Shown: positions 6,801 through 56,925, counted from the stretch's first letter. The stretch is DNA of 64,000 bases from Fidelibacterota bacterium (GCA_021734025.1 JAIPJS010000017.1:6165-70164), one strand, 5' to 3'. Notes: generated from the letters alone by a model not told the origin. Translations and numbers: made by a program.

Positions 6801-7242
6801 ATGAAAAAAGTGATCCTGCTTAGCAGCACTCTACTATTCCTTACCGCTTGTGGACTCCATTTTGTTAAGGACGGGCCAGTGCACCGTGAAAATCCTGATG
6901 GGAGCGAAGAGAGAAGTACCAGTTTCTCAATTTATTCCAACAAGACCGAAGATACGCTGGAACGCGCCCGCCACCTGGCATCTAAACAGGAATTTCAAAA
7001 AGCCATACATTTATATACATCGGGTGTACGAGGATTCGACACTCAAATCCGAGTACAGGGCCGATGCCCTGTATCATATGGGATCCCTGCACGGAAATTT
7101 TTTCAATGATAACAGGGATCTCGAAAAAGCGCATGAACTTCTTACCCGCCTCGTAAACGATTTTCCACTTTCTGATTTCCGGGATCGGGCGGAAAAACGC
7201 ATTGCGGAAATTGAGCGTCAGATGGCTAACACTGAAGATTAA
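6801..7242 (+). pseudogene. TPR-like lipoprotein (BamD/YbgF-like C-terminus) interrupted by a +1 frameshift near 7005-7022
   Basis: AGGAGG RBS and lipoprotein signal peptide (MKKVILLSSTLLFLTACG) in frame 0; TPR-like C-terminal region (..YRADALYHMGSLH..LVNDFPLSDF..RIAEIE) continues in frame +1; switch lies in duplicated hexamer ATACATTTATATACAT. Confidence 0.5.
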
Positions 7243-20244: not shown

Positions 20245-20482
20245 AGAACGAAAAAAGGAAAAAAGCCGCGAAGGGGCGACAGATGAATAGCCCCGGGTTT
20301 TAACCCGGGGATTGTGTGAATCCCAAAATTCAAAACACTGAAGATGTGAAAGAAATACCTTATTGAAGAATGAAGAATGAAAATTAAAGAAGTGGAAAAA
20401 CTAAAGGAAACTGGAATTATGAGACAGGAAACCGAAAACCAGCAATCCAGAACTGGGGACACAGCATGCTTGACCGTTTTAA

Positions 20483-20550
20483 CGATAACACCATAACACA
20501 ATTACACAGTTTTAACTTAAACACTTGAACACCTGAACACACTAACACTG
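20483..20550 (+). repeat. tandem octamer NNRAACAC module upstream of start codon
   Basis: GATAACAC CATAACAC .. TTAAACAC TTGAACAC CTGAACAC ACTAACAC, ending 17 nt before the ATG at 20568. Confidence 0.6.
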
Positions 20551-21008: not shown

Positions 21009-21635
21009 ATGACATAAGCCGGTGGGAATCTTGAAACGTGCAAAATAAAAAGCGTCGACTTGAATTTTTTTCCACTTTTAACGTCAAGGTTTTGATGTCC
21101 AAGTGTTCCATGCAGGCCCGGACATGCGTTTCAAGATAAAAGTGGAATTAATTGATATAGTTCCAAAACTCCAACATCACTCTTGTTTTTAAAACTATTG
21201 CTATCTTTTAATTGCCCGCTTTTTCTTGATAAAAAACGGGCAGAAAAAATCAAGGAAACTCAGAACTCGCACTCCTATAAATATACAGGCTCTTTTGCAA
21301 CATTGGATATAGTAAATATTAACTCATTCAATTTCTACTGGGGTGCTCAAACAGCTGAGTTTCCGGTAAAAAAACTAGCAATAATTTGCTGTGCAATTTA
21401 TTTTTCGCTCTTTTAATGCCCGAGTATTCCATATACGCATCAAGACAAAAGGGCGGTTACCTGCCGTGTCAACGTTGAAAACACAATCAATACGTTGTTC
21501 ACCCTACATCCAGAAGAAATCTTCGTCTGTAAAGATGGTGGCTATCTATTTGGGCGAATTTTAATAATCCCGACGTCACCCCCTCGGAAAGCTCAGCTCC
21601 GGGAAAAGCCTCCGGTGAGGATATTGCCTAAAACA

Positions 21636-21674
21636 GTCATTCCGAGCGGAACGGAGTGGAGCCGAGGAATCTCG
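21636..21674 (+). repeat. mosaic intergenic repeat R1 (GTCATTCCGAGCG..GGAATCTCG), copy A
   Basis: Near-identical to 34989-35027; related copy at 31264-31312. Confidence 0.6.
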
Positions 21675-21759
21675 CAAATGAATTTCAGGGGTAAAATTGA
21701 TGCGCCCTTTCCTCATCGCAATAATATGTTCGTCGCGGCGAATTGCGAGGCTCTTCTTT

Positions 21760-21788
21760 GGTAGCCTTTGAATTTCATTCAAAGGCGG
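21760..21788 (+). repeat. palindromic repeat R5 (GGTAGCCTTTGAATTTCATTCAAAGGCGGA)
   Basis: Perfect hairpin CCTTTGAAT-TTC-ATTCAAAGG; second copy with 2 mismatches at 39517-39546. Confidence 0.55.
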
Positions 21789-21999
21789 ATTTTACCGGAT
21801 AAAGCCGGAAAATTTGGTTGGCGACTGTGAATTAGAATGACCCTTTCAGGGTCTCGACCCCTGAAAGGGTCGGTAGCAAATAAGGAAACTCAATGCCATT
21901 CAGTCTTTGCGGCCCAGGTGATCCGTTTGTTAAGAGGGAGAACTCGAGAAATCTAGTCTGAACACATCGGGAATGAAGTGAAAAACTAAAAAACAAGAA

Positions 22000-22221
22000 G
22001 TAGAGACGTAGCATTCAGGTTGTGTGAAAACGAAAAATCAAATAAAAAGTGAATGCTGGGCACCGGTTTGTTCTTCCAGTAGAGACGTTCCATGGAACGT
22101 CTCTACAATCAACAATATCAATGGGTTACTGTATATTATTTTGCAGAGAGGATTTTCCGGAATCAAGAGAAAAAAATCTCTTGACAAAAAATTCTCACAC
22201 AGCCTCCGTGGTACGTCTCTA
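22000..22221 (+). repeat. MITE-like structured element, copy A (about 220 bp with long terminal inverted repeats and internal hairpins)
   Basis: Ends TAGAGACGTAGCATTCAGGTTGTGTGAAAA / TTCTCACACAGCCTCCGTGGTACGTCTCTA are inverted repeats; internal perfect hairpin 22079-22106; homologous to 34393-34627. Confidence 0.55.
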
Positions 22222-22237
22222 GTCTACCATTAACTTT

Positions 22238-23119
22238 TCAGTCCTCCCGACACGTCTCCGCCACATCCTCAAATGTAAACAGCCGGGAGTGAATCGCCGG
22301 ATGATCGACGCCAAGCCGGTCGAAGCCATCGCCGCCAACGTACAGCCGGATATCATATTTCTGGCATTGCTCATAGAGATAGTTAATCTCAAACTGGATC
22401 ATATTGATATCCTGGATATATGTGCTGGAAACGTAGAGCCGGTCAATATTAACCTCGCTGAAGATCTTTTCGATGTTGAAGAGCGGGGTAATCTGTCCGC
22501 TGAACAGTACCCGATATCCGTGCTCCTCCAGAATATGATCCACCATCTTGATGGCAATGTCATGCAGCTCCGATGAGAAATTAAGGCAAAAAGCTGTTCC
22601 CTTTTTCTGCGGGGGAATCTTGATCGATCCCTGGAGCCGGATAATACTGTCCCGGATGGTCTGCGACGCAAAGTGCTCCCCGATGACGGATAATTGATCA
22701 TTCTCCCAGAGATGGCCGATCTCGTGCAGTGCTGGCGTGAGAACTTTGTCATAAATCCGGTGCAGCGGATGCTGTCCCAGGTAGAGGCCGTTCAGGATTT
22801 TCTGAATTTTTTCGCGGTTTTTGTCCAGGGCGAGGTCAAGTATTTGCCCAGACAAGTATTCATAGTCGCCTTTAATAATGTGGTAGCTCGTCTCCAGATC
22901 CGATTCGGTTTCGATGGGGAAAAGGTTGGCTTTCTGGATTTTTTCCTCATTGCGCTCAAGAAAGTCCGCCAGATGCTCCGGCAGGAATTTCCGGTGCCCC
23001 CCGGCTGTCCGGATGCACTCCAGCTTCCCGTCATCCGTCCACCGTTTGATGCTGGACACATGCACTCCAAGGATATTGCTCACCTCTTCGCTGGTAAAGT
23101 ATTTCATCTCACTCGACAC
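22238..23119 (-). CDS. MerR/excisionase-type HTH regulator with B12-binding-like C-terminal domain (LitR/CarH-like light-responsive regulator)
   Basis: N-terminal HTH (..EEVSNILGVHVSSIKRWTDDGKLECIRTAGGHRKF..); C-terminal Rossmann-like cobalamin-binding-type region with GEH and VGGDGF motifs; divergent from a carotenoid operon. Confidence 0.7.
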   Translation of the reverse strand: MSSEMKYFTSEEVSNILGVHVSSIKRWTDDGKLECIRTAGGHRKFLPEHLADFLERNEEKIQKANLFPIETESDLETSYHIIKGDYEYLSGQILDLALDKNREKIQKILNGLYLGQHPLHRIYDKVLTPALHEIGHLWENDQLSVIGEHFASQTIRDSIIRLQGSIKIPPQKKGTAFCLNFSSELHDIAIKMVDHILEEHGYRVLFSGQITPLFNIEKIFSEVNIDRLYVSSTYIQDINMIQFEINYLYEQCQKYDIRLYVGGDGFDRLGVDHPAIHSRLFTFEDVAETCRED

Positions 23120-23202
23120 AACATTTCTCCTAATTTAATTCTCCGTAAGATACTTTTACGCGAGACCAGAGTCAAATATTTTGAGCGTTATGAACTTTTT
23201 TC

Positions 23203-23231
23203 TTGACGTATAATGATTTTAAATGTATTAT
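23203..23231 (+). promoter_or_regulatory. sigma70-like promoter TTGACG-N17-TATTAT for the carotenoid operon
   Basis: -35 TTGACG 23203-23208, 17-nt spacer, -10 TATTAT 23226-23231; about 55 bp upstream of the 23285 start. Confidence 0.5.
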
Positions 23232-23234
23232 CTA

Positions 23235-23251
23235 AACGCTCAAAACGCTCA
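23235..23251 (+). promoter_or_regulatory. direct repeat AACGCTCA-A-AACGCTCA just downstream of the -10 (candidate operator for the adjacent regulator)
   Basis: Two AACGCTCA copies at 23235-23242 and 23244-23251; inverted copy TGAGCGTT at 23182-23189. Confidence 0.35.
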
Positions 23252-23284
23252 TAAAATTTTTGAAGGAGCGAAAACGGAGAAAGA

Positions 23285-23866
23285 ATGAGAAGACGGATAA
23301 TTAAATCGATAATGGTGGTAATGGCCGGAATAACCTGTCTTGCCGGACTGACTAAAGCACAGGATGTCCCGGAGGATTCCCTGTTGCACCGAGGCCGGAA
23401 TTTGTTCTATACAGCCGTGGAGAGTGAAGTTGCGCTGGATTCCGCTCAAGCGGCGTTTAAACAATTGCTCTCCGAATATTCTCAGGAATACGGAGGCCGT
23501 GCCCAAACCTACATCGGCGCCCTCACCGCACTCCGGGGCAAGCACGCTCTCTGGCCGCAGAAGAAATACAAATATGTCATGGAGGGAATTGACCAGATGG
23601 AGTCCGGCGTCGCTGCCAATCCGAATGATATCGAATCACTCTTTATATACGGTTCAACCTGCTATCACCTGCCGAGTTTCTTCGGCAAAAGCAAAGAGGC
23701 GCAAGAGGCATTCAGGCAGATAGTAGCTCTCCTGCCGGAGCATGCGGATCAATATGACGCGGATATGATGGAAAACGTCATTGAATTCCTGCGAGCCAAC
23801 GCCAATCTGGATTCCAGTGACATGATGACCCTCAGTACAATTGCCAAGGAACTCGGAAACGGATGA
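23285..23866 (+). CDS. hypothetical secreted protein, first gene of the carotenoid operon
   Basis: GGAG RBS; signal peptide (..MVVMAGITCLAGLTKAQD); helical, no recognisable catalytic motif; stop overlaps next start (ATGA). Confidence 0.6.
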   Translation: MRRRIIKSIMVVMAGITCLAGLTKAQDVPEDSLLHRGRNLFYTAVESEVALDSAQAAFKQLLSEYSQEYGGRAQTYIGALTALRGKHALWPQKKYKYVMEGIDQMESGVAANPNDIESLFIYGSTCYHLPSFFGKSKEAQEAFRQIVALLPEHADQYDADMMENVIEFLRANANLDSSDMMTLSTIAKELGNG

Positions 23867-24561
23867 TCTACGAATATCTCATATTTAACGCGATTGTGGC
23901 AGCCGGCCCGGTGGCGCTCAGTTTTGAGCGAACGGTGCGGTACGTGACGAAGTGGCGGGCTGCCATCATCGCTTCTGTAACAGCGGCGCTCCCGTTCCTT
24001 CTCTGGGATCTGCTGGTCGCCGGCAAGCACTGGCAGTTCAGCGAGGATCACACCCTGGCATCTCTGGGATTCCTGCTGCCGCCGGGGGAGATACTGTTTT
24101 TCCTCACCGTCCCGTTCGCCTGTCTCTTCATCTGGGAAGTACTCCGGAAAAGGGAATGGGCCTTGCTGAAAAGGACTTCCTTAATTTACCCGATATTTTA
24201 TGCAATCGGTGCGGCTGGAATACTCTTTCTCATTGTCACTTCCAGAGATTACACGGCGCTCGTGCTGATAACCATCGGTGTTGTGGCGCTGGCGGACCGA
24301 TTCTCTGGTGCACAATTGTTAACACAAAAGGTGACTTACACGTTTTTAGCCATCGTTACGGGACTCATTTTAGTGTTTAACGGATACCTCACCGCCCGGC
24401 CGGTGGTGCTGTACAATCCGGACGTCCTCTCAGGACTTAAAATTTTCACTATTCCGGTGGAGGATTTCCTCTACGGCTACGGCCTTATTTTGTTGGTAAC
24501 GGTTATATACACAAGAACAACCCACACGAACACTACACCCAATCACGGAGAAAACCAATGA
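23863..24561 (+). CDS. lycopene cyclase domain protein (fused CrtYcd-type)
   Basis: Membrane protein with two copies of the PxE(E/D) lycopene-cyclase motif (LPPGEILFFL and IPVEDFLYGYG). Confidence 0.7.
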   Translation: MIYEYLIFNAIVAAGPVALSFERTVRYVTKWRAAIIASVTAALPFLLWDLLVAGKHWQFSEDHTLASLGFLLPPGEILFFLTVPFACLFIWEVLRKREWALLKRTSLIYPIFYAIGAAGILFLIVTSRDYTALVLITIGVVALADRFSGAQLLTQKVTYTFLAIVTGLILVFNGYLTARPVVLYNPDVLSGLKIFTIPVEDFLYGYGLILLVTVIYTRTTHTNTTPNHGENQ

Positions 24562-26057
24562 AACGAGCAGTCATAATCGGAGCGGGCTTTGGCGGACTGG
24601 CAACGGCTATCCGTTTGCAGTCGCGGGGCTACCGCACTACGCTTCTGGAAAAGAATGCAAAAGTCGGGGGACACGCCTACCAGCTGAAGCGGGACGGCTA
24701 CACCTTCGACATGGGACCGTCGTTGATCACCGCACCGGATATTATCCAGGGTGTATTCAGTTCCGCCGGGAAACGGATGGAGGACTATCTGGATCTGACC
24801 AAACTGGATCCGTTCTACCGGATCTATTATCACGACGGAACTTATCTGGATTACACGGACGATTCCGACGATATGAAGCGTCAGATGGCGCAATTCAATC
24901 CCGGGGATGCAGAAAACTACGACGAATTCATCAACGAATCCCGGGAACTCTACAACGCCGTGATCACCGACGGGCTCGGTTCGACGCCGTTCCAGGACTG
25001 GGGCACCATGCTGGAATTTTTACCGCGAGCATTGAAGCTGAAGGCCCTCCTGCCGGCTCACACGTTCGTCAAACGTCATTTTAAAGATCCGCGGCACCGG
25101 TTTGCGTTTTCGTTTCATCCGTTGTTTATCGGCGGGAGTCCGTTTCGGGCTCCTTCAGTCTACTTGATGATCCCGTACCTGGAGAAAACCGGCGGCGTCT
25201 GGTTCAGCAAGGGGGGCATGTACAGCCTGGTGGAAGCGTTCGCCAAAGTATTCACCGAATCCGGCGGCACCATTCACACCAATTCGCCTGCCACAGAGAT
25301 CGTAGTGGAGGACGGAAAGGCTGTAGGAGTCCGGACGGACGATAACTTCTACCACGCTGACGTAGTGGTCTCAAACGCTGACTTTGCGCATACCTATCGC
25401 AACTTGGTAAAGCCGGAGCACCGATCGAAATGGTCGGATCGCAAGGTGGAAAAAATGGACTATTCCATGAGCGCCTTTCTCCTGTATCTGGGTGTGAAAA
25501 AGCAGTATCCCAAACTGAAGCACCACACTCTGATACTCTCGGAACGTTACAAAGAACTTGTGAAGGACATTTTTGACAGGAAGATTCTGCCGGACGATTT
25601 CTCCATGTACCTGCACGTGCCGACCCGCACCGATTCTGAGATGGCGCCGGAAGGAGCCGAAAGTATGTACGTGCTGATTCCGGTAGCCAATCTCGATAGC
25701 GGCATTGATTGGGAAGAGATGAAGCAGACGTACGCCGATAAAATCCTCCAATTCCTGGAGGAAGATTTCGGCTTGGAGGACCTGCGCACCAACATCGAGG
25801 TGCAGGAAATTTTTACTCCCAAGGATTTTCAGGAGCAACGAAATTCCCATCTCGGCAGCGCCTGGGGCGTGGAGCCGAAGCTCACCCAGACGGCGATTTT
25901 CCGCCCCCATAACCGCAGCGATGATATCGGCGGACTTTACTTTGTTGGCGCCAGCACCCACCCCGGCGCAGGCGTCCCGGGCGTCCTGCTGACGGCGGAG
26001 GCCACGGAGAATGCCATTCTGGAAGATATACGAAAAAATCAACTGAAAACCACGTGA
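24558..26057 (+). CDS. crtI: phytoene desaturase
   Basis: N-terminal FAD dinucleotide-binding motif (AVIIGAGFGGLATA..); overall amine-oxidase fold; adjacent to crtB. Confidence 0.85.
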   Translation: MKRAVIIGAGFGGLATAIRLQSRGYRTTLLEKNAKVGGHAYQLKRDGYTFDMGPSLITAPDIIQGVFSSAGKRMEDYLDLTKLDPFYRIYYHDGTYLDYTDDSDDMKRQMAQFNPGDAENYDEFINESRELYNAVITDGLGSTPFQDWGTMLEFLPRALKLKALLPAHTFVKRHFKDPRHRFAFSFHPLFIGGSPFRAPSVYLMIPYLEKTGGVWFSKGGMYSLVEAFAKVFTESGGTIHTNSPATEIVVEDGKAVGVRTDDNFYHADVVVSNADFAHTYRNLVKPEHRSKWSDRKVEKMDYSMSAFLLYLGVKKQYPKLKHHTLILSERYKELVKDIFDRKILPDDFSMYLHVPTRTDSEMAPEGAESMYVLIPVANLDSGIDWEEMKQTYADKILQFLEEDFGLEDLRTNIEVQEIFTPKDFQEQRNSHLGSAWGVEPKLTQTAIFRPHNRSDDIGGLYFVGASTHPGAGVPGVLLTAEATENAILEDIRKNQLKTT

Positions 26058-26064
26058 GGCCATC

Positions 26065-26979
26065 ATGAAAAAGTACTGGAAATCCGGGGAAAACAGGGTC
26101 GCCTTCGAGCACGCCAGAGATCTGACGGCGCATCACTCCAAGTCGTTTTATCTCTCCACCCGGCTGCTCCCGGAGGAAAAGCAGTGGGCCACGTTCGGCC
26201 TGTACGGTTTTTGTCGCTATGCCGATAATCTCATCGATAATCCCAGGGATCGGTCGGCAGACGAGCTAATCCGAGAAGTGGACTACCTGCACGAGGAACT
26301 CAGCATCGCGTATCGAACCGGCGAATCCGAGCATCCGATACTCCGCCCGTTTATCGCCGTGGCCAAGCGGTACGGGATTCCGGAGAAATATCCCAGAGAT
26401 TTGCTCCTGGGCGTCCGGATGGATCTGGAAATCGATCGCTATAAAACGTTCGACGAACTCTACCTGTTTGCCTATCGCGTTGCCGGTGTGGTGGGATTGA
26501 TGATGACTTCCGTGTTGGGCTACAAGGACGAGGCGGCATTTGAGTACGCAGAGAAATTGGGCATTGCCATGCAGCTGACCAATATCCTCCGGGACGTCCG
26601 CGAGGACGCCGAACGTGGCCGTATCTATCTGCCACAGGATGAACTGAAGCAGTTCGGCGTTTCCGGGCAAGCTATCCTCCGGGGAGAAATGTCGCCTGAA
26701 TTTCGGGAATTGATGCAGTTTCAGGTGGATCGGGCGCACCGGTATTACCGCGAGGCCAATCCCGGCATCAACATGCTGGCGACCAACGCCCAGTTTGCCA
26801 TCCATTCGGCAAGCAAAATCTATCGGGGAATTCTCCGGAAAATTGAAGCTCAGAATTACGATCCCTTCCAGGGACGGGTATTCGTCCCGCAGATCCAGAA
26901 GTTCGGCATCCTGATCCAGGAAGTGGTGCGAACCAAAGTCCTGGTGGCCCAGGAACGGCTTCTCCCGGCAGGAACCTAA
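26065..26979 (+). CDS. crtB: phytoene synthase
   Basis: Squalene/phytoene synthase family segments (..YCRYADNLIDN.., ..YAYRVAGVVGLMMT..). Confidence 0.85.
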   Translation: MKKYWKSGENRVAFEHARDLTAHHSKSFYLSTRLLPEEKQWATFGLYGFCRYADNLIDNPRDRSADELIREVDYLHEELSIAYRTGESEHPILRPFIAVAKRYGIPEKYPRDLLLGVRMDLEIDRYKTFDELYLFAYRVAGVVGLMMTSVLGYKDEAAFEYAEKLGIAMQLTNILRDVREDAERGRIYLPQDELKQFGVSGQAILRGEMSPEFRELMQFQVDRAHRYYREANPGINMLATNAQFAIHSASKIYRGILRKIEAQNYDPFQGRVFVPQIQKFGILIQEVVRTKVLVAQERLLPAGT

Positions 26980-26997
26980 GGATTTGGGAGACAAGAA

Positions 26998-27729
26998 ATG
27001 ATAAAGGCAGAGAAAACATGGTGGGCGGATCAGCTGTTCCGGAGGTACGTGTTCCGGTCGCTGCGAAAGCACTTCGCCGGGATATCTCTGGTAGGAGAAG
27101 TCCCAGTAATTGATCCGAAACTCCCGGTGATCCTGGCGCCGAATCACAGCACGTGGTGGGACGGATTTTTCGTCTATGCACTCAATGAGAAATTACTGAA
27201 CCGGGATCTCTACCTGATGATGACCGAAGAGCAGCTCTCCCGGTTTCCCTTTTTCCGGAAGGTCGGCGCCTATTCGATTAATCTGAAGTCCACCCGGGAT
27301 GCTCTCAATTCGCTACGGTACACTACCGAATTACTTGCGCGTGATGAAGTTCCAGGCCCGATGGCCTGCATCTTTCCCCAGGGAAAATTAGAGCCGTGGC
27401 ATCGGAGACCGCTGGAGTACAAGCCTGGATTGCAATGGATTATCAATCATTGTGTGGGTGCAGTCAGCCTGCTTCCGCTCGCTATATATGTGACATTCAT
27501 CGATCAGCAGTATCCGGAAGTGTTTATCCTCTTCGGGGAGACGTGTGAAGTCAGTTCCAGTTCCTTCCAGGGAGTGGACTGGCTTGCAGGTGAGGAGGAA
27601 AGCCTTTTGGACAGGCTGCTACAAACGGTGGATGCAGGTGAACGGAAGCAGGTGCTTTTTCAGGGAAGGCGGTCGGCAGACCAGCGCTGGAGCGGCATTA
27701 AACATCTCTGGAAAGGCGATATGTCATGA
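26998..27729 (+). CDS. lysophospholipid/glycerol-3-phosphate acyltransferase family protein (candidate carotenoid-glycoside acyltransferase)
   Basis: Acyltransferase motif NHSTWWD (H-x4-D); position between crtB and a glycosyltransferase. Confidence 0.65.
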   Translation: MIKAEKTWWADQLFRRYVFRSLRKHFAGISLVGEVPVIDPKLPVILAPNHSTWWDGFFVYALNEKLLNRDLYLMMTEEQLSRFPFFRKVGAYSINLKSTRDALNSLRYTTELLARDEVPGPMACIFPQGKLEPWHRRPLEYKPGLQWIINHCVGAVSLLPLAIYVTFIDQQYPEVFILFGETCEVSSSSFQGVDWLAGEEESLLDRLLQTVDAGERKQVLFQGRRSADQRWSGIKHLWKGDMS

Positions 27730-28847
27730 CCGTACTTTCAATCTTATTGCTCGTTCCACTGGGACTTTTGTTACTTGTCGCACTGTTCAATGCGGTGTTT
27801 ACACCCAGATTACAGAAGCATTTTCCTGTAAAGGATTCGCCGAAAGTCTCGGTTTTGGTGCCTGTCCGCAATGAAGAGGAAACCTTACCGCGCTGCCTAT
27901 TGACTTTGACTGAGCAGGATTATGGGGACTTCGAAATCCTGGTGCTGGACGATGGTTCCACCGACAAAACGCCGGACATAATCCGGGAATTTGCGGAGGA
28001 ACACGCCCGGGTGCACTATATCCCCGGTGAACCGCTTCCTGAAGAATGGTCGGGGAAGAACTGGGCGTGCCATCAGCTGAGTGCAGCAGCGACCGGAGAT
28101 ATTTTGCTCTTTACGGATGCCGATAACTGGTACCGGGACGATGCGATTTCCAGAACTATCGGATGGATGCAACAGTATGAACTCGGAATGCTTTCGGCGT
28201 TCCCGGAACAGAGCACTCATACCCTCGCCGAGCAGATGATCATCCCGATTATGGATCTGTTGGTTTACGCGGGATTGCCGCTCTGGCTGACATATTATAC
28301 GAAATTTCCATCTCTGGCAGCAGCAAACGGCCAGTGGATGGCCTTCTCCAGAGAAGCCTATAACGCGGTGGCGGGACATGCATCAGTCTGTCGGGAAATT
28401 GCCGAGGATACCGCACTGGCGCGCCGGGTAAAACAGGCCGGAATTCCCATGCTGACAATGGCGGGAACCGGGGTGGTTTTCGGCCGCATGTATAAATCGT
28501 TCAATGCCATCAAAGAAGGATTTACTAAAAACCTGTTCAGCCTGATGAACCGGCGAACCCGGCCGTATTTTATTCTGGTGGCCATCGTGCTTTTTGTCAC
28601 CATTACTCCGTACGTGTTGGTATTCGTCCCCGGATTCAGTATCGTTGGAACGGTCGGTGTCCTGTTACAAGGAGTTATGCGGCTTATTGTGGCGGTCAGG
28701 TTTTGGCATCCGCCGGTGATCAGCGCGGTATTGCACCCGGTGAGTATATCCATCTTTGCCTACATAGCCGTCAACTCGTTTTTTAAAACAAAGAGCAATG
28801 CGGTGGTCTGGAAGGACAGAACAATTGCGCTGTATAATCGTGGGTAA
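27726..28847 (+). CDS. family 2 glycosyltransferase (candidate carotenoid glycosyltransferase)
   Basis: GT2 segments (VSVLVPVRNEE.., LVLDDGSTDKT.., FTDADN); C-terminal TM helices; start overlaps previous stop (ATGA). Confidence 0.75.
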   Translation: MTVLSILLLVPLGLLLLVALFNAVFTPRLQKHFPVKDSPKVSVLVPVRNEEETLPRCLLTLTEQDYGDFEILVLDDGSTDKTPDIIREFAEEHARVHYIPGEPLPEEWSGKNWACHQLSAAATGDILLFTDADNWYRDDAISRTIGWMQQYELGMLSAFPEQSTHTLAEQMIIPIMDLLVYAGLPLWLTYYTKFPSLAAANGQWMAFSREAYNAVAGHASVCREIAEDTALARRVKQAGIPMLTMAGTGVVFGRMYKSFNAIKEGFTKNLFSLMNRRTRPYFILVAIVLFVTITPYVLVFVPGFSIVGTVGVLLQGVMRLIVAVRFWHPPVISAVLHPVSISIFAYIAVNSFFKTKSNAVVWKDRTIALYNRG

Positions 28848-28889
28848 TTTTAATCACAAATCATGAAGATATTGGTAAAAAGGAAAGTG

Positions 28890-31229
28890 ATGATGAAACG
28901 TATTTCGATAATATTTGCAGCCGTTCTGGGGATAACAGTTACTGGTGTACAGCATACGCATGCCCAGCAGACCGGCGTCATTCAGGGCACTGTGGTGGAT
29001 GCCAAAACCCAGGAGCCGCTCATCGGTGTAAACGTGGTCGTGGTGGATACCGACCTCGGGGCATCTACCGATATGGAAGGCTTTTACCGCATAACGGGCG
29101 TGCCGATCGGTACCGAGCGGCTCCGTTTTTCTTATATCGGATATGAAACACTTCTCCGGACGGACGTCATCGTCACCCGCAACAAACCGGCGCAGGAGAA
29201 CGCCGAACTCCAGCCGCAGGCAGTAGAGGGAGAAGAGGTCGTTGTGACCGCAGGTTATTTTGAGGAATTGCGAAAAGCCCAGACCAGCAAGATCCAACTC
29301 TCCAAGGAAGAGATTCGACGGTTTCCCGGTGGCTTCGAGGATGTGGTGCGAACGGTGGCAGCCCTGCCGGGAGTAGCCATAAATAACGATGGTGGCAGAA
29401 ACGACTTGCTGGTGAGGGGCGGCGGCCCGTCGGAAAATTTATACCTGATCAATAATATAGAAATCCCCAACATTAATCATTTTGGCTCCCAGGGGACGGG
29501 AAGCGGCTCCCTGAGTTTTATCAACCTGGATTTTGTGGATAAAGTGGACTTCTCCACCGGCGGATTCAGCGCGCAATACGGAGACAAGATGAGCTCTGTG
29601 CTGGCGCTGGATATGGCCGACGGACGGGAAGACCGGTTCGGGAGTAAGGTTTTAGTTTCCGCTACACAGTACGGGCTAAATGCCGAAGGTCCGCTGGGTA
29701 ACGATGGCAATTTCATCTACTCCATCCGTCGGAGCTACCTGGATCTCATTTTCGAGGCCAACGGACTGCCGTTCGTTCCGACATATACCGACTGGAATTT
29801 CGTCGCCAATTACGATGTGACACCTACGGATAAACTCTTTGTGTTGGGTATCGGCGCCTACGACGAAGTCAACCGGGATCAGAGCACCCTGGAGAGCCGG
29901 GTGTTCAACGCAGGTATTATGGACAATTCGCAGAACCGCTGGATCGGCGGACTGAACTACCGCCATCTGCTGGGCAGCGGGTATCTGGATTTCACCTTGA
30001 GTAACAATTATACGGATTTCCAGTTCAGCCAGGTGGATTCAGTCCAGACGGAATATTTTCGCAGCGAAGCTACCGAAGTGGAGACGAACCTGAAGTTGCA
30101 ACATTACTGGCGGCTGAGTAACAGTGTGAACCTGCTGAGCGGCGCATCGGTCAAGGATGTCCGGAATGAGAACACCACTACTTTCGCAGATACCATATAC
30201 AACCGGAACGGCGATCAGGTGCCGGTGAATTCGCTGGGCATACCGCAGCGGCTGGAGGAGAATTCCGACGCATTCAAGAACGCGCTCTTCTCGGAGATTC
30301 AATGGAAAATCACACCAAAATTGGAAGTTTCAACAGGCATCCGGGCGGATATTTACACCTTCCTGGATCAGCCATGGTACGTGGCGCCGCGATTCAAGAT
30401 GCGGTACGCGTTTAATGAGGTATTCAGCCTGAAATCCAGCGCCGGGATTTACTATCAGGCGCCCTCGTACGTCTGGGTGATCAACGATGTGAATACCCAG
30501 CTGAAGGCGCTGCGGAATAACATGGCGGTGGTCGGATTCGACTATCTGCTCGATGAGGATCTGCGGCTTTCGGTAGAATCCTATTACAAGGATTACCAGG
30601 ATCTACCCACCGGCGCCACACCCGGCACCGATTATCTGGTGATTACAAACACCGGCACCGGGTTCGGCGGACGGGAGAACGATTTCCAGTCCTTCGGCTA
30701 TTTTCCCATGGAATCAACAGCGTACGGCCACGCCTACGGATTCGAATTGTTTCTGCAGAAAAAATACTCCGAGGTGCCACATTACGGGAAGGCTAGTCTG
30801 ACTTACAGCAAGAGTGAATTCACTGCCGGCAACGGCAGGGTGCAGCCCGGCGAATTCGACCAGCGCTGGATCTTCAACCTGTACGGCGGATACAAGTTTA
30901 ACGCGGATTGGGAAATGAGCGGCAAATTCCGGTTCTTCACCGGCGCACCGTATACGCCGGTATATCGGCCATCGGAGAACGGCGGGGAGATTCAGAATCT
31001 GCCGGAAGAATACCTGTCGAAGCGACTCGAACCGGGACATCATCTGGACGTTCGGCTGAATCGGTACTGGAATTTTGAGAGCTGGACATTCATCGCATTC
31101 ATCGATATTCAGAACATCTACAACAATCGGATCCAGGTACGGCCGCGCTACGACTTCTGGGAGGACGAAGTCGTTGACCGGCAGGGCATCGGGATTTTGC
31201 CGTCGATTGGACTCAGCGCGGAGTTGTAG
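28890..31229 (+). CDS. TonB-dependent receptor-like outer-membrane protein with N-terminal carboxypeptidase-regulatory-like domain
   Basis: Signal peptide; CarbopepD_reg-like segment (GTVVDAKTQEPLIGVNVVVVDTDLGASTDMEGFYRI), plug-like region, long beta-barrel region; start chosen at internal ATG after AGGA RBS. Confidence 0.7.
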   Translation: MMKRISIIFAAVLGITVTGVQHTHAQQTGVIQGTVVDAKTQEPLIGVNVVVVDTDLGASTDMEGFYRITGVPIGTERLRFSYIGYETLLRTDVIVTRNKPAQENAELQPQAVEGEEVVVTAGYFEELRKAQTSKIQLSKEEIRRFPGGFEDVVRTVAALPGVAINNDGGRNDLLVRGGGPSENLYLINNIEIPNINHFGSQGTGSGSLSFINLDFVDKVDFSTGGFSAQYGDKMSSVLALDMADGREDRFGSKVLVSATQYGLNAEGPLGNDGNFIYSIRRSYLDLIFEANGLPFVPTYTDWNFVANYDVTPTDKLFVLGIGAYDEVNRDQSTLESRVFNAGIMDNSQNRWIGGLNYRHLLGSGYLDFTLSNNYTDFQFSQVDSVQTEYFRSEATEVETNLKLQHYWRLSNSVNLLSGASVKDVRNENTTTFADTIYNRNGDQVPVNSLGIPQRLEENSDAFKNALFSEIQWKITPKLEVSTGIRADIYTFLDQPWYVAPRFKMRYAFNEVFSLKSSAGIYYQAPSYVWVINDVNTQLKALRNNMAVVGFDYLLDEDLRLSVESYYKDYQDLPTGATPGTDYLVITNTGTGFGGRENDFQSFGYFPMESTAYGHAYGFELFLQKKYSEVPHYGKASLTYSKSEFTAGNGRVQPGEFDQRWIFNLYGGYKFNADWEMSGKFRFFTGAPYTPVYRPSENGGEIQNLPEEYLSKRLEPGHHLDVRLNRYWNFESWTFIAFIDIQNIYNNRIQVRPRYDFWEDEVVDRQGIGILPSIGLSAEL

Positions 31230-31263
31230 GATAGGGAATGGGGCAATTATGTAGTTCAGCTGA

Positions 31264-31312
31264 GTCATCATCCCGAGCGGAGGTTCTTCAGAACCGAAGC
31301 CGAGGGATCTCG
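31264..31312 (+). repeat. mosaic repeat R1-related copy
   Basis: GTCATCATCCCGAGCGG..CCGAGGGATCTCG related to 21636-21674 and 34989-35027. Confidence 0.45.
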
Positions 31313-31342
31313 TCAATTACACTGGGTGGTTTAAATTTCCGG

Positions 31343-31405
31343 CAAAGTAACACTTACCTCAAAGAGATCCCTGTGGGACAGAGGGCAAGACCTGGAAGGG
31401 TCGAT
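31343..31405 (+). repeat. repeat R3 copy 1 (..GTAACACTTACCTCAAAGAGATCCCTGTGGGACAG..)
   Basis: About 60-nt element repeated at 31567-31630 and in reverse orientation around 35128-35190. Confidence 0.6.
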
Positions 31406-31434
31406 AAAATTGGGAGATGAAAAACCAGGTTCAA

Positions 31435-31500
31435 CCTGTCATTTCGACCGAAGTGAACCTTTGGTTTTTAAAAGGTGAACGAAGCGGAAAAATCTCGTGA
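31435..31500 (+). repeat. repeat R2 (66 nt), copy 1
   Basis: CCTGTCATTTCGACCGAAGTGAACCTTTGGTTTTTAAAAGGTGAACGAAGCGGAAAAATCTCGTGA; second copy at 34651-34716 with 3 mismatches. Confidence 0.75.
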
Positions 31501-31566
31501 AAATCCAATAGGAATGGAAAAATAATTCAAATATTCCGGGATGACTTGCACTTTTTTTCTTGAGTG

Positions 31567-31630
31567 CAAAGTAACACTTACCTCAAAGAGACCCCTGTGG
31601 GACAGGGGTTAAGACCCTGGAAGGATCGGT
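31567..31630 (+). repeat. repeat R3 copy 2, ending 20 nt before the 31650 start
   Basis: Contains perfect hairpin ACCCCTGTGGGACAGGGGT. Confidence 0.6.
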
Positions 31631-31649
31631 TATACAAAGAAAGTGAAAA

Positions 31650-32294
31650 ATGAAGCATAAAATTAAACTCACTACCCTCTACCTCCTCCTCGGCGCCGGC
31701 GGACTCTGGCACTTGCTGGGATTGTTTCAGTCAGCGATGGCCTGGCTAGCCGGGCCGTTGCTGATTGGACTCGGTGTCTGGACTGCATGGGAGTGGTATC
31801 ACACATTATCTGAAAATCAGCGATGGCGGTATATAGGTTGGGCAACGTTCGTGATCGCGGGGAGTTTTCTCCTGGAGTGGATCGGCGTAAAAACCGGAGT
31901 GGTCTTCGGCGAGTACCATTACGGCACTGTACTTCAACCGCAAGTCGCCGGAGTGCCGGTCGCCATCGGCTTTGCCTGGCTGACGGTGATGCTCTCTTCG
32001 ACCGCTGTGGTCGGGAGGCTTCGATCCGGAATGCGGGGATGGGGACTGGTAATCGGTGGAGCGCTCTTTATGGTGACATTTGATGTGATATTAGAACTAG
32101 CCGCAATGAAACTCGGCTACTGGGAGTGGGAAGGCGTGCTGGTTCCGATACGGAATTATGTTGCCTGGTTTGCGGGCGGACTCATCTTCCTTTCCATTGG
32201 AGACCTGCTCAAGATTTTTCCGTCAAAAATTCCAAAGATTTTGATGCATATGTATTTTGCCCAGATATTGTATTTTGGGTTGGCGCTGATTTAA
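31650..32294 (+). CDS. carotenoid biosynthesis membrane protein (CruF-like, candidate carotenoid 1,2-hydratase)
   Basis: 214 aa polytopic membrane protein in a carotenoid gene neighbourhood; family assignment by context and architecture only. Confidence 0.45.
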   Translation: MKHKIKLTTLYLLLGAGGLWHLLGLFQSAMAWLAGPLLIGLGVWTAWEWYHTLSENQRWRYIGWATFVIAGSFLLEWIGVKTGVVFGEYHYGTVLQPQVAGVPVAIGFAWLTVMLSSTAVVGRLRSGMRGWGLVIGGALFMVTFDVILELAAMKLGYWEWEGVLVPIRNYVAWFAGGLIFLSIGDLLKIFPSKIPKILMHMYFAQILYFGLALI

Positions 32295-32307
32295 TAATTT
32301 TATAGAG

Positions 32308-32772
32308 GTGACTTTGAAAGTTTACAATATGGATGAAACGCAGGTATTGCCGATTTCTCTCGACGTGGCGTGGGATTTTTTCTCGGATCCGGCCAACCTG
32401 GAGGAAATTACGCCTCCGTGGCTGAAGTTCAGCATACAATCGCATGACGAGGGGGAGATGTATCCCGGAATGCTTATCCGGTACAAGGTCACCGCGCTGT
32501 TCGGCATTCCGATGAACTGGATCACCGAAATCACCCAGGTGAGGGAAGGGGAATACTTCATCGACGAGCAGCGGTTCGGTCCGTACAGGTTCTGGTATCA
32601 TCAGCATCATTTCAGCGAGGTTGAAAACGGGACGAAAATCAGGGATATTCTCCACTATGGACTGCCGTTTGGGATAATTGGAAGAATTGTACACGCAGTC
32701 AAAGTGAAGGGACAATTGCGGGAGATTTTTGAATATAGACACCGGATTTTGCGGGAACGATTTGGAGAATAA
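32308..32772 (+). CDS. SRPBCC domain protein
   Basis: 154 aa; ..VAWDFFSDPANLEEITPPWL.. typical of SRPBCC fold; GTG start. Confidence 0.7.
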   Translation: MTLKVYNMDETQVLPISLDVAWDFFSDPANLEEITPPWLKFSIQSHDEGEMYPGMLIRYKVTALFGIPMNWITEITQVREGEYFIDEQRFGPYRFWYHQHHFSEVENGTKIRDILHYGLPFGIIGRIVHAVKVKGQLREIFEYRHRILRERFGE

Positions 32773-32781
32773 TTGCGCTGT

Positions 32782-32808
32782 TTGGGGCTGAAGCCCCATT
32801 TGTTTTGT
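32782..32808 (+). terminator. rho-independent terminator candidate
   Basis: Hairpin GGGGCT-GA-AGCCCC followed by T-rich ATTTGTTTTG; second hairpin CCCCGCCATAGATGGCGGGG at 32818-32838. Confidence 0.45.
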
Positions 32809-32966
32809 GCCATTTAACCCCGCCATAGATGGCGGGGCTAGTCAATTTTGTCGCTATTCATTCATATGAATAGCCCCGGGCTTTCCCAAAGGGATCTCCA
32901 TGAGGCAGCCCGGGGATAAAGATAAACTACAAATGATTGGCCCATTAAGGCTATTGTCGCAACGAA

Positions 32967-34334
32967 ATGCAATCCAAAATCCACCCGAACCGAATTCAGC
33001 GATTAAACAACAAGAGCATCAGTCCGGACGGCTCGTACGTCCTCTACTGGATGCAGGCCTCTCAGCGGGCGGAGTGGAATCACGCGCTGGAGTATGCCAT
33101 CGAACGAGCAAACGCGATGGAAAAGCCGCTCATCGTGGTCTTCGGGATCACCGATGATTATCCCGACGCTAACGAGCGGCACTACGCGTTCATGCTTCAG
33201 GGCTTGCAGGAGGCACAGCAATCGCTCGCTGAACGCGGCATCCGAATGGTCATCCGGCACCAGCCGCCGGCAAGGGCGGCCATAGCATTTGCCAGAGATG
33301 CCGTTCTCGTCGTCACCGATCGAGGGTACCTCCGGTTCCAGCGGGTATGGCGGAGCGAGGTTGCGGAAAGTATCGAAATACCGCTGATTCAGGTGGAGAC
33401 AGGCGTCATTGTCCCGGTAGAAGTCGCCTCGGAGAAGCGGGAATACGCCGCCCGCACGATCCGACCAAAGATTCACCGGCATCTGGAGGAGTACCTGAAG
33501 CCCGTCGAACCGGTGGTATTGCATCACCACTCACTGGACATCAAATTTGAGTCCTTTGCCATAGATGATGTGGAGTCGGCACTTGCCAGCCTGGATATCG
33601 ATCCGAGTGTTCCACCAGTTGGTACTTTCACCGGCGGAACTTCGGAAGCGAAGAAACATCTCCGGGAATTCATCGAAAACAGGTTGGATCAATATGATAA
33701 CCTGCGAAACGATCCCACGAAGGAGTATCTCTCCAATATGAGCCCCTATCTGCAATTTGGGCAGATTTCGCCGCTCTATATTGCGATGCAGGTTGAGGAA
33801 ACCGAAAGTCCCGGAAAGGAGTCATACCTGGAAGAGTTAATCATCCGCCGGGAACTGAGTATGAATTTCTGCTATTATGACGAGAACTATGACAATTTTG
33901 AGTGTCTTCCGGGGTGGGCGAAGAAATCACTGGATAAGCACGCCGATGACGAGCGCGAATATCTCTACTCTCTAGAGGAGTTCGAAAACGCCAAGACCCA
34001 CGACCCGTACTGGAACGCCGCGCAAATGGAGATGGTGAAGACCGGCAAAATGCACGGCTACATGCGGATGTACTGGGGCAAGAAGATCCTGGAGTGGTCG
34101 GAGTCACCGCAGGAGGCGTACCAGATAGCCATCTTTCTCAACAACACGTACGAATTGGACGGCCGGAATCCCAACGGCTACGCCGGCGTGGCCTGGTGCT
34201 TCGGGAACCACGACCAGGGCTGGAAGGAACGACCTGTGTATGGCAAGGTGCGCTATATGAACGCGAACGGATTAAAGCGCAAGTTTGATGCGGAGGGGTA
34301 TGTGGAGAAGGTTAAAAGAATGGCACGCAGATGA
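32967..34334 (+). CDS. deoxyribodipyrimidine photolyase, class II CPD photolyase type
   Basis: Recalled class II photolyase signatures: ..YVLYWMQASQRAEWNHAL.., ..RNDPTKEYLSNMSPYLQFGQIS.., ..KTHDPYWNAAQMEMVKTGKMHGYMRMYWGKKILEWSESPQEA.. Confidence 0.85.
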   Translation: MQSKIHPNRIQRLNNKSISPDGSYVLYWMQASQRAEWNHALEYAIERANAMEKPLIVVFGITDDYPDANERHYAFMLQGLQEAQQSLAERGIRMVIRHQPPARAAIAFARDAVLVVTDRGYLRFQRVWRSEVAESIEIPLIQVETGVIVPVEVASEKREYAARTIRPKIHRHLEEYLKPVEPVVLHHHSLDIKFESFAIDDVESALASLDIDPSVPPVGTFTGGTSEAKKHLREFIENRLDQYDNLRNDPTKEYLSNMSPYLQFGQISPLYIAMQVEETESPGKESYLEELIIRRELSMNFCYYDENYDNFECLPGWAKKSLDKHADDEREYLYSLEEFENAKTHDPYWNAAQMEMVKTGKMHGYMRMYWGKKILEWSESPQEAYQIAIFLNNTYELDGRNPNGYAGVAWCFGNHDQGWKERPVYGKVRYMNANGLKRKFDAEGYVEKVKRMARR

Positions 34335-34392
34335 CGTGGAAAAAACGGATGACCACGGATTAATAGATTTGGTTAAACTAGATCAAGATGTA

Positions 34393-34627
34393 ACGACGTA
34401 ACATGCAGGGTGTGTGAAAATACGCAAGGGAACAATTGTGAGTAATCATCACATATTCCTTCTGGTAGAGACGTTTCTTGCCTGTCCCGAGATGTCGGGG
34501 GAAACGTCGCTACATACAATAGTAACAATGGCTTATCGAAGATTTTTATCGAGTGGGATTTCACTACGCTCAGAGGAAAAAATTCCTTGACAATGCATTC
34601 TCACACTGCCTCCATGCTATGTCTCTA
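34393..34627 (+). repeat. MITE-like structured element, copy B
   Basis: Homologous to 22000-22221 with shared terminal blocks and internal hairpins; compensatory changes in one stem (AGAGA/TCTCT versus AGGAA/TTCCT). Confidence 0.55.
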
Positions 34628-34650
34628 CTGCTTCCACTCATCTAATATTA

Positions 34651-34716
34651 CCTGTCATTTCGACCGAAGTGAGCCTTTGGTTTTTAAAAGGTGAACGAAG
34701 CGGAGAAATCTCGTGA
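34651..34716 (+). repeat. repeat R2, copy 2
   Basis: 66-nt near-identical copy of 31435-31500. Confidence 0.75.
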
Positions 34717-34988
34717 GTTAGACCGGAGATTCCGCTTCAACAGAACAACCCTTCATTTCCGGCTACACGATTTGTTGTCCCTTCCACACTCGGGGACTCT
34801 AATGATGGTGAATGGAGTCTCAAGAATGTGAGACGGAAAATAATTCAAATAGCCCGGAGTGCAGTGATATTGGCGGAATCCCTGGCGGTGAAAATGCCGA
34901 TTAAATTACGAGTTTCCTTAATCCTTGGCTTCCTCCGATAAAACGGTTTTCGCCAGAAATTAGAAAATATTAAAAGCAAAAAGTATAA

Positions 34989-35100
34989 GTCATTCCGAGC
35001 GAAACGAAGTGGAGTCGAGGAATCTCGTAAAGCCAACCTCTTGAGAGACAACCACGAGATCCTTCGACTCCCCCGACAAGTCGGGGTCGCTCAGGATGAC
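34989..35100 (+). repeat. 112-bp imperfect palindrome (R1 full element)
   Basis: 5' arm GTCATTCCGAGCGAAACGAAGTGGAGTCGAGGAATCTCG pairs with 3' arm CGAGATCCTTCGACTCC..TCGCTCAGGATGAC; internal hairpin CCCCGACAAGTCGGGG. Confidence 0.65.
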
Positions 35101-35202
35101 TGGTATTGTTTTCGACTGTATTCTTATGATCCTTTCAGGGCCTCGAGCACTGTCCCACAGGGATCTCTTTGAGGAAAGGGTCTGATAATACACGAGGAGA
35201 AT

Positions 35203-37684: not shown

Positions 37685-37758
37685 GGAGTAAGATTAGGAT
37701 TAAGAGTAACCAGCACTGTTGTTAACTTGAACACCCGAACACATTAACACTTGAAAAC
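37685..37758 (+). repeat. hexamer (TAAGAT/TAGGAT) module followed by octamer NNRAACAC module, + orientation
   Basis: GTAAGATTAGGATTAAGAG then TTGAACAC CCGAACAC ATTAACAC, about 80 bp upstream of the 37836 start; mirror-image copy 37545-37575 on the other side of the divergent region. Confidence 0.55.
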
Positions 37759-48817: not shown

Positions 48818-49060
48818 ATTAGTATTACGTACTGCGTATTAGTGTCCAGGTGTTCCACACAAGCGCGTATGAAACCGGAAAAGGGGACAGATTGAATATC
48901 CAACCGACGATTATCCAATGCTCTGCTGCGGCGGAACGGCGAACCAATCCCGAGGACCCCACCCGGTTCTGACCCCTTCTAAAGAATTCAATATCATGAA
49001 TGATGAGTGAAAAAGTGAAGAACGCGGAGAGCGGAAACTGAAGAATCTCGAGCATCTAAA

Positions 49061-49106
49061 CAATAACACGGGAATACCCGAACACTATAACACTATTTTC
49101 AACACT
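49061..49106 (+). repeat. octamer NNRAACAC module upstream of cmk
   Basis: AATAACAC .. CCGAACAC TATAACAC .. TTCAACAC, about 50 bp upstream of the 49157 start. Confidence 0.5.
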
Positions 49107-56657: not shown

Positions 56658-56817
56658 AATAAGGTAGTCGCCCGCTTCAAGTCCGCGAGGCGGATTTAAT
56701 CAGGGGAGACGCCGGAGAAAAGCAGAAAGGAACAGATTGAATATCCATTTCGCCGCGGTAGAGAAAAAGTGAAAAAACCAAACGAGAAACGGAAGGCACT
56801 CGATTCATGACGTTTTT

Positions 56818-56925
56818 AACTATAACACCACAAAAAGGAAACACTATAACGCCCTCATCCGCCAGGGCTTCGGAGAGATGGTGTTGTTACTCGAACACTG
56901 GAACACCTGAACACTATACCACTTG
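56818..56925 (+). repeat. octamer NNRAACAC module upstream of the UDP-glucose dehydrogenase gene
   Basis: CTATAACAC .. GAAACAC TATAAC .. TCGAACAC TGGAACAC CTGAACAC TATACCAC. Confidence 0.5.

Follow-up and report, generated by a model that had tools for sequence, protein, structure and literature searches.

Probable insertion of a non-autonomous IS1182-type element into the loop of a REP-like palindrome in a Fidelibacterota bacterium

Background

Are two strongly folding, non-coding repeat units in a bacterial genome small structured RNAs or pieces of mobile DNA? The question is raised by a stretch of 64,000 nucleotides from a Fidelibacterota bacterium (GCA_021734025.1, JAIPJS010000017.1:6165-70164; the whole stretch is referred to as the window), in which two diverged copies of such a unit, here termed A and B, lie at either end of a carH-carotenoid-photolyase gene cluster. 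An earlier inspection of the DNA without database searches (the sequence-only reading) had described them as a MITE-like element (MITE, miniature inverted-repeat transposable element) with terminal inverted repeats (TIRs) of about 30 nt, an internal long hairpin and a short hairpin in front of a TTGACA block, and had considered both a structured RNA and a foldback mobile element family. The evidence presented here indicates that A and B are most likely copies of a non-autonomous IS1182-type MITE inserted into the loop of a palindrome resembling repetitive extragenic palindromic (REP) sequences. They are ordinary selfish DNA, represented by old copies, and not a structured RNA gene.

The Correia elements of Neisseria, Nezha of cyanobacteria, ERIC and RUP are small, non-coding, intergenic MITEs with TIRs, target duplications and fold-back potential. 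Bacterial MITEs occur as diverged, dispersed copies and are mobilised in trans by related insertion sequences (IS). REP sequences typically begin with GTAG, and the IS3-family members IS1397 and ISKpn1 insert specifically in the loops of REP sequences (palindromic units), the arms of which are left on either side.

Results and discussion

Two homologous units in the window

Copies A and B (Table 1) are homologous units in the same orientation with a pairwise identity of 66 %. The repeats, internal palindrome and TTGACA block of the sequence-only reading are all present at about the positions given by it, and its internal long hairpin is a perfect 28-bp palindrome in A, the arms of which are parted by a 21-nt loop insertion in B. 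The sequence of copy B is unchanged in an independent Logan assembly. Both copies fold stably (A, -81.5 kcal/mol, z -8.0 against shuffles; B, -74 kcal/mol, z -3.8) and are non-coding, since the listing of open reading frames (ORFs) contains no credible ORF inside them; small ORFs nearby have no Pfam match. Their sites are convergent 3' intergenic regions, copy A lying 16 nt past the carH stop codon and copy B 55 nt past that of the photolyase gene. No further copy was detected in the window by self-BLAST and an nhmmer family profile, or in 20 kb of adjoining contig, amounting to two copies per ~84 kb.

Terminal repeats of the IS1182 type

The outer inverted repeat of ~30 nt, present in both copies, is composite and consists of a 12-nt palindrome half, 4 nt (CATG) and an inner segment of 16 nt. 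The latter, (C/G)AGGnTGTGTGA(A/G)AA(C/T), matches the TIR of full-length IS1182-family IS; the end form of IS1182-type elements is also given as GAGGCTGTGTGA(A/G)AA. Compared with the IS 16-mer, the left and right arms agree at 15/16 and 13/16 positions in A and at 14/16 and 12/16 positions in B, and the GTGTGA core is invariant in all seven copies of the family described below.

One genome per species (185,579 species genomes) was scanned with a two-arm pattern representing only the inner part of both arms, yielding 22 loci (L003-L024; L numbers denote loci throughout), ~20 of which display arm complementarity well past the pattern. The hosts are Methylobacterium and Acetobacteraceae (Alphaproteobacteria), Acidobacteriaceae (Acidobacteriota), Bacteroidales, Planctomycetota, Lentisphaeria, Cloacimonas and Neomarinimicrobiota. 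Interiors differ among these loci, the arm (C/G)AGGCTGTGTGA(A/G)AA(C/T) being common to them. BLAST of a Methylobacterium copy against plasmids revealed the same arm beside annotated IS1182-family transposase genes, and the same 16 nt terminate annotated IS1182-family IS on plasmids of Pseudomonas, Ralstonia and Cupriavidus (L025-L027), with transposases scoring 482 and 457 bits on NCBIfam model NF033551 (cut-off 270). Twenty further relatives of the plasmid transposase were taken from viral contigs, and both ends were located at 14 loci in total (3 plasmid-borne and 11 from the viral-contig relatives). These full-length IS measure 1.56-1.76 kb, end in (C/G)AGGCTGTGTGAAAAC, i.e., CAGGCTGTGTGAAAAC or GAGGCTGTGTGAAAAC, and are surrounded by a perfect 4-bp direct repeat in 12 of 14 cases.

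A full-text literature search with the end sequence returned unrelated primers only, and neither the two-arm pattern nor the arm/end junction had a match in viral contigs. In plasmids, a single 18-nt match to the junction was found inside a Deinococcus TnpB gene and judged to be due to chance.

Short elements of ~175-205 bp with the same 16-nt ends and host-specific interiors are distributed over at least seven phyla (L003-L024 and Methylobacterium plasmids), one example being positions 211654-211852 of the Methylorubrum extorquens AM1 megaplasmid (NC_012811.1). Their interior often holds a palindromic repeat of the host itself, e.g., in Cloacimonas (L024).

Target duplications and palindromic flanks

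Ten of the 22 small elements are bordered by a perfect 4-bp duplication and two more by a 5-bp duplication (chance ~5e-19). CATG is found on both sides of copy B, L008 and L018; inspection of the flanks, by which the sequence-only reading had proposed to recognize target-site duplications, thus recovered one for B and a decayed one for A. At the same junction, inside GTAG-like flanks, L016 and L012 carry the direct repeats CACT and CACTC, respectively, which, being non-palindromic, fit duplication of the target rather than a long inverted repeat.

Copy B has the layout GTAACGACGTAA-CATG-(CAGGGTGTGTGAAAAT ... ATTCTCACACTGCCTC)-CATG-CTATGTCTCTAC, and if the element (in parentheses) and one of the two CATG are taken out, the remaining sequence is the 28-bp palindrome GTAGAGACGTnnCATGnnACGTCTCTAC in diverged form. 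The cleanest case is L018, GTAGAGACGTTC-CATG-(GAGG...CCTC)-CATG-GAACGTCTCTAC, the flanks of which are complementary at 12/12 positions. Outside the duplication, complementarity of 8-12/12 is observed in six of the seven copies of the family described below (A, 10/12; B, 8/12) and in L019, as well as in L023 from Lentisphaeria (9/12) and L024 from Cloacimonas (11/12), with P <= 0.003 for each. In all other phyla the element ends clearly at (C/G)AGG. One Pseudomonas plasmid harbours two otherwise identical IS copies with flanks that are alike but not identical, which argues for a preferred target rather than a part of the element. Members of the IS1182 family, including IS1272, were reported to target hairpins or palindromes and to land just downstream of genes (PMC4923244, PMC5678879), and one route in the model for IS1272 duplicates the loop alone (PMC5678879).

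A family of seven dispersed copies

Further copies, the search for which had been suggested as a check, exist at unrelated loci. Seven members share interior and ends: A, B, L007, L008 and L018 (one Neomarinimicrobiota metagenome-assembled genome, MAG), L012 and L031, together from at least four assemblies. The five members beyond A and B lie between genes at unrelated loci of assemblies other than that of the window, most of which are from Marinimicrobia, with neighbouring genes as different as rnfB/NusG-like, ABC transporter and MarC/DUF302 and with non-homologous flanks. Pairwise identity across the seven is 57-72 %, and A and B are no closer to one another than either is to copies of other assemblies. 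Conserved are the ends, the inner palindrome, the block CAATGGnTTA exactly 12 nt after the palindrome and a TCAAG/CTTGA pair just inside the ends, while the remainder drifts. TCAAG in the left arm and the TTGACA block in the right arm are 88 % complementary, and the block is, therefore, more inverted repeat and not a -35 box with a -10 partner. As an outward promoter TTGACA was rejected, as no -10 partner is present in either copy and the block pairs with the left-arm TCAAG. Nesting of the element in the inner palindrome of an older copy was likewise discarded, because the flanks of all copies lack significant similarity to the element.

L016 and L019 represent a second family, in which these ends and palindrome halves surround another interior, built of a GTCATCCTGAGCG-type repeat that is also scattered through the window.

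An insertion of 20-21 nt (CCTGTCCCGAgAtGTCGGGG), itself a small hairpin, is located precisely in the middle of the inner palindrome, at CATG, in B (34479-34499) and L007 (~6840-6860); a similar hairpin, CCCCGACAAGTCGGGG, belongs to another repeat of the window at 35070-35086. Directly outside the left palindrome half, a weak, degenerate motif resembling a second left end occurs in A (GTGAAAAACTAAAAAACAAG, 21966-21990) and L031 (AAGCTGTGTAATTAC, ~1310-1325), recalling the tandem left-end duplication of IS1272L (PMC5678879).

The palindrome as an independent element

The 28-bp palindrome GTAGAGACGTnnCATGnnACGTCTCTAC is intact inside the element, and its two 12-nt halves stand outside. It is an independent, widespread REP-like element: free-standing and intact, it is found typically right after genes in five viral contigs (L035-L039) with G+C contents of 36-64 %, and on plasmids of Nostoc, Anabaena, Planktothrix, Calothrix, Persicobacter and Parabacteroides (plasmid matches H20-H53). 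It has a GTAG head, occurs in the window only within or around the element and is multi-copy in Persicobacter (~13 copies in a 1-Mb replicon) and in one viral contig. The central bases of free-standing copies vary in matched pairs (TTGCATGCAA, TAGCATGCTA, TGGCATGCCA). A full-text literature search for the palindrome retrieved no description and unrelated primers only. Viral contig L038 contains several copies and a nearby half-copy.

An insertion into this palindrome has to be weighed against a longer transposon end of ~32 nt, made up of GTAGAGACGTTCCATG and the IS1182-like 16 nt together, whereby the palindrome halves would travel with the element and the inner palindrome would be two outer end-segments abutted, not a target. 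This we regard as quite unlikely, although most of the remaining doubt concerns this point. It would agree with the presence of the halves in nearly every family copy and in the second MITE family (L019, L016), with the absence of a free-standing palindrome from ~110 kb of Marinimicrobia DNA, with the self-complementarity of CATG, which suits an inverted repeat as well as a duplication, and with L018, where CCAA stands on both sides outside the halves. However, a direct repeat outside the halves is present in just one of six copies, whereas the non-palindromic repeats of L016 and L012 are positioned exactly at the inner junction, and other phyla and the full-length IS end at (C/G)AGG with a 4-bp duplication. 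Moreover, the halves covary as matched variants (column pair 16-240 of the alignment), as if different perfect palindromes had been split, and the palindrome occurs independently in unrelated genomes.

A tentative and unlikely extension of the target interpretation is that GTAGAGACGTnnCATGnnACGTCTCTAC could be a cross-phylum REP-like element with an actively maintained hairpin (Cyanobacteria, Bacteroidota, Marinimicrobia and viral contigs) that also serves as landing pad for one IS1182-family subgroup, with the MITE carrying its own pad inside. If so, the MITE would seed new targets wherever it goes, and a general, so far undescribed partnership of an IS family and a palindrome family would be indicated.

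Compensatory changes and the structured RNA alternative

Pairing was counted in the alignment of the seven copies. The inner palindrome is 97.8 % paired, every pair being Watson-Crick, and two positions have changed on both sides (UA to GC and UA to CG), giving rise to the variants GTTCCATGGAAC, GTGCCATGGCAC and GTTTCATGAAAC. The outer helix is 81 % paired over 33 positions, and column pair 16-240 of the split halves reads AU in two, GC in two and UA in two copies; such matched variation between halves ~200 nt apart would be the expected result of insertion of each copy into a different perfect palindrome. Column-wise compensatory change is confined to the palindrome, i.e., its inner copy and split outer halves. 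In the outer halves, G·U and A·C pairs number 7 and 5, respectively, without strand bias, and an excess of A·C in the transposon ends results from a fixed difference between left and right ends.

The short hairpin that the sequence-only reading had singled out as compensatory does not behave in this way. Its stems AGAGA/TCTCT and AGGAA/TTCCT pair only with a register shift of 2-3 nt that uses bases of the A-run, and across the seven copies 69-71 % of cells are paired in either fixed register. The differences between its stems, taken as a sign of selection on RNA structure, thus lack covariation, and true compensation is restricted to a DNA palindrome.

A structured non-coding RNA (small RNA or 3'-untranslated region element) with helices selected for RNA folding is very unlikely. 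The stability of the fold against shuffles, the conserved blocks amid 57-72 % identity, the compensatory changes in the palindrome and the position of both copies just 3' of stop codons, where they are probably co-transcribed into the 3' ends, would be in accord with it. Yet the comparison with Rfam, one of the checks proposed at the outset, yielded nothing at gathering threshold for the whole window (Rfam 15) and only noise at E up to 10 for copy A, and no conserved promoter or terminator was found. In addition, the unit is absent from both orthologous sites of a relative (see below) and has unrelated neighbours elsewhere, the inner pairs are all Watson-Crick with no G·U asymmetry in the outer halves, and transposon ends together with the arms of the target account for the outer helix.

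Mobile DNA that forms hairpins can undergo compensatory change, as is well documented for REPINs (PMC3116915), and the covariation observed here, therefore, does not imply RNA. Also considered was a REPIN-like nature of the units, in which a REP-associated tyrosine transposase (RAYT) would move the GTAG-headed palindromic repeats in the form of single-stranded hairpins, the IS1182-like sequence being incidental cargo. The palindrome starts with GTAG on both strands, is spread over phyla and shows compensatory changes, which are frequent in REPIN hairpins (PMC3116915). This alternative is nevertheless extremely unlikely, as no Y1-transposase domain was detected in the scanned ORFs of the window, the outer repeats correspond to half-palindromes rather than full REP units, and the same 16-nt ends occur without the GTAG palindrome in many phyla, with the 4-bp duplications typical of DDE transposition.

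Orthologous sites and the carH-photolyase cluster

A syntenic relative (protein identity of 80 % for photolyase and 81 % for CarH) has kept the whole neighbourhood in order. Its 34 kb of syntenic sequence contain neither the element nor the end motif nor the palindrome, and both sites occupied in the window are empty, from which it follows that A and B are lineage-specific insertions; given the distance of the relative (80 % amino acid identity), this presence/absence is not a strain-level polymorphism. The spacer between photolyase and peptidase genes measures 156 bp in the relative and holds an ordinary bidirectional terminator, versus 916 bp in the window, where copy B is accompanied by repeats of at least three further types. 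On the other side, carH of the relative is followed after 9 nt by a convergent gene for a DUF1614 membrane protein (L042, 6892-7674), positioned between carH and a polyketide-cyclase-like gene. In the window (21009-22237) the DUF1614 gene is gone, and its position is occupied by 1.2 kb of non-coding DNA that is rich in repeats of several types and contains copy A; no DUF1614 remnants were detected beside copy A.

The two copies bracket the 12-kb carH/carotenoid/photolyase cluster exactly, and there is no third copy in ~84 kb, as would be expected of the arms of a composite transposon that had delivered the cluster. Almost certainly they are not such arms: the relative has the same cluster with the same synteny on both sides and neither copy, which contradicts this proposal, A and B are only 66 % identical, and each copy has its own palindrome halves and its own duplication. 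The light-response cluster was, therefore, not brought in by these repeats.

The cluster at 22238-34334 comprises genes for a MerR/B12-binding CarH-like regulator, lycopene cyclase, phytoene desaturase and synthase, an acyltransferase, a glycosyltransferase, a TonB-dependent receptor, a carotenoid synthesis protein and photolyase, the order of which is conserved in the relative.

Proposed mode of transposition

The foldback mobile element family put forward by the sequence-only reading has gained support from extra copies at unrelated loci, ends of a known family shared with IS1182-family IS, target duplications and empty orthologous sites; short and non-coding, with TIRs and dispersed copies, the units have the properties of a MITE, and the 16-bp TIR type and palindromic target flanks are those of an IS1182 derivative. 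It had also noted that no transposase is nearby, and indeed no transposase, integrase, Y1 transposase or reverse transcriptase was detected among the 60 gene-like ORFs of the window that were checked. Despite this, the sequence of the ends is indicative of trans action by an IS1182-family transposase.

The MITE of ~190 bp, bounded by the 16-bp TIRs of IS1182-family IS, would be cut out by an IS1182-family DDE transposase encoded elsewhere and pasted into the central CATG of the 28-bp palindrome, whereby the 4-bp loop would be duplicated. It would carry along one intact copy of the palindrome and, as a second inverted-repeat module, TCAAG/CTTGA. Ends and conserved blocks were likely kept, while the rest drifted, because only copies possessing them could be mobilised, and this constraint would act at the level of DNA and not of RNA structure. 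Copies A and B would have landed in convergent 3' intergenic regions, and regions of this kind hold hairpins and tolerate insertions.

Several observations weigh against this interpretation. The family sample is small (n = 7) and was gathered with patterns derived from the window copies, and a metagenome scan with an internal pattern, which was probably too strict, gave seven matches of which one (L031) was real. The duplication of copy A is decayed (CATT versus CGTG), and CATG is its own reverse complement, so that a duplication and a longer inverted repeat are indistinguishable in most copies. All occurrences of the palindrome in the ~110 kb of Marinimicrobia sequence are tied to the element, and the empty site of the relative is too diverged to reveal a former palindrome. 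Finally, searches for an IS1182-family transposase in the window, in 20 kb of its flanks, at the Marinimicrobia loci examined and in all other collected sequences except the reference IS loci were negative, so that an autonomous partner in this lineage is hypothetical.

Relation to known systems

With the IS1182 family (e.g., IS1272 and L025-L027) the window element shares 16-bp TIRs (12-15/16 agreement with proteobacterial IS ends), 4-bp duplications and insertion sites in hairpins or palindromes that closely follow genes (PMC4923244, PMC5678879). It differs by the lack of a transposase gene, a size of ~190 bp versus 1.6-1.9 kb and an unrelated interior. Moreover, IS1272 removes the target stem-loop and makes no duplication, whereas the insertions in the window have retained both arms and doubled the loop. 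Small size, intergenic location, TIRs, duplications, fold-back potential and diverged dispersed copies are in common with the Correia, Nezha, ERIC and RUP MITEs; distinguishing features are the parent family IS1182, the embedding in one specific palindrome with a second copy of it inside, and the low copy number. IS1397 and ISKpn1, in contrast, are autonomous, belong to another transposase family and target enterobacterial REP sequences instead of a GTAG...CATG...CTAC palindrome. GTAG-headed palindromes, long hairpin potential and hairpin-keeping compensatory changes are also known from REPs and REPINs (PMC3116915). Unlike RAYT-mobilised REPINs, the element has DDE-type ends with 4-bp duplications and half-palindromes as outer repeats, and no RAYT is encoded among the window ORFs.

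The folding and the seemingly compensatory pairs can accordingly be attributed to transposon ends plus a split DNA palindrome, removing an RNA gene as a false lead. The combination of a 16-nt IS1182 end, a 4-bp duplication and palindrome arms offers a signature for the annotation of MAGs of Marinimicrobia and many other phyla. The copies would also provide sequence-level examples of IS1182-type insertion into hairpin loops with loop duplication, an outcome put forward before only as one possible route in the IS1272 model.

Feature coordinates and other repeats of the window

Table 1 Features of copies A and B (positions counted from the first nucleotide of the window)
Feature	Position	Strand	Remarks
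Copy A, whole unit including palindrome halves	22000-22222	+	223 bp; profile match 21998-22223, E 7.5e-61
A, left half of split 28-bp palindrome, GTAGAGACGTAG	22000-22011	+	probable target DNA; 10/12 complementary to 22211-22222
A, left 4-bp duplication, CATT	22012-22015	+	decayed from CATG
A, left IS1182-type TIR, CAGGTTGTGTGAAAAC	22016-22031	+	15/16 identical to ends of full-length IS1182-family IS
A, left arm of inner inverted-repeat module, TCAAA	22038-22042	+	TCAAG in other copies
A, intact inner palindrome, GTAGAGACGTTCCATGGAACGTCTCTAC	22079-22106	.	28/28 self-complementary
A, conserved block, CAATGGGTTA	22119-22128	+	always 12 nt past inner palindrome
A, short hairpin, AAGAGA-A6-TCTCTT	22165-22182	+	described in the sequence-only reading; structure not conserved
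A, CTTGACA block	22180-22186	+	right arm of inner inverted-repeat module; no -10 partner
A, right IS1182-type TIR, ATTCTCACACAGCCTC	22191-22206	+	
A, right 4-bp duplication, CGTG	22207-22210	+	decayed
A, right half of split palindrome, GTACGTCTCTAG	22211-22222	+	
Copy B, whole unit including palindrome halves	34390-34628	+	239 bp; profile match 34388-34629, E 4.3e-57
B, left half of split palindrome, GTAACGACGTAA	34390-34401	+	
B, left 4-bp duplication, CATG	34402-34405	+	perfect match to 34613-34616
B, left IS1182-type TIR, CAGGGTGTGTGAAAAT	34406-34421	+	
B, inner palindrome arms, GTAGAGACGTTTC / GAAACGTCGCTAC	34465-34513	.	21-nt insertion at CATG centre, common to L007
B, CTTGACA block	34586-34592	+	
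B, right IS1182-type TIR, ATTCTCACACTGCCTC	34597-34612	+	
B, right 4-bp duplication, CATG	34613-34616	+	
B, right half of split palindrome, CTATGTCTCTAC	34617-34628	+	

At least three other families of small repeats are crowded into these intergenic regions. A GTCATTCCGAGCG...GAGGAATCTCG type, which constitutes the interior of the second MITE family (L016, L019), is located at 21635-21678, 31268-31310 and 34988-35031. Furthermore, a pair of 67-nt repeats (31434-31500 and 34650-34716) is 97 % identical, and a ACACTTACCTCAAAGAGATCCCTGTGGGACAG-type repeat is found at 31342-31403, 31566-31628 and, inverted, 35124-35181.

Octamers of the form 'nnnAACAC', strictly spaced at 8 nt, are arrayed in groups of three to five behind GTTTTAAC or GTTGTTAAC in upstream or intergenic positions (20476-20549, 37719-37751, 49054-49094, 56813-56853 and 56883-56923). 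These arrays could be operators, UP-like elements or elements of 5'-untranslated regions; from the end of the first array it is ~20 nt to the start codon (ATG) of the polyketide-cyclase-like gene, and a further array is located ~85 nt before the DcuC-like gene.

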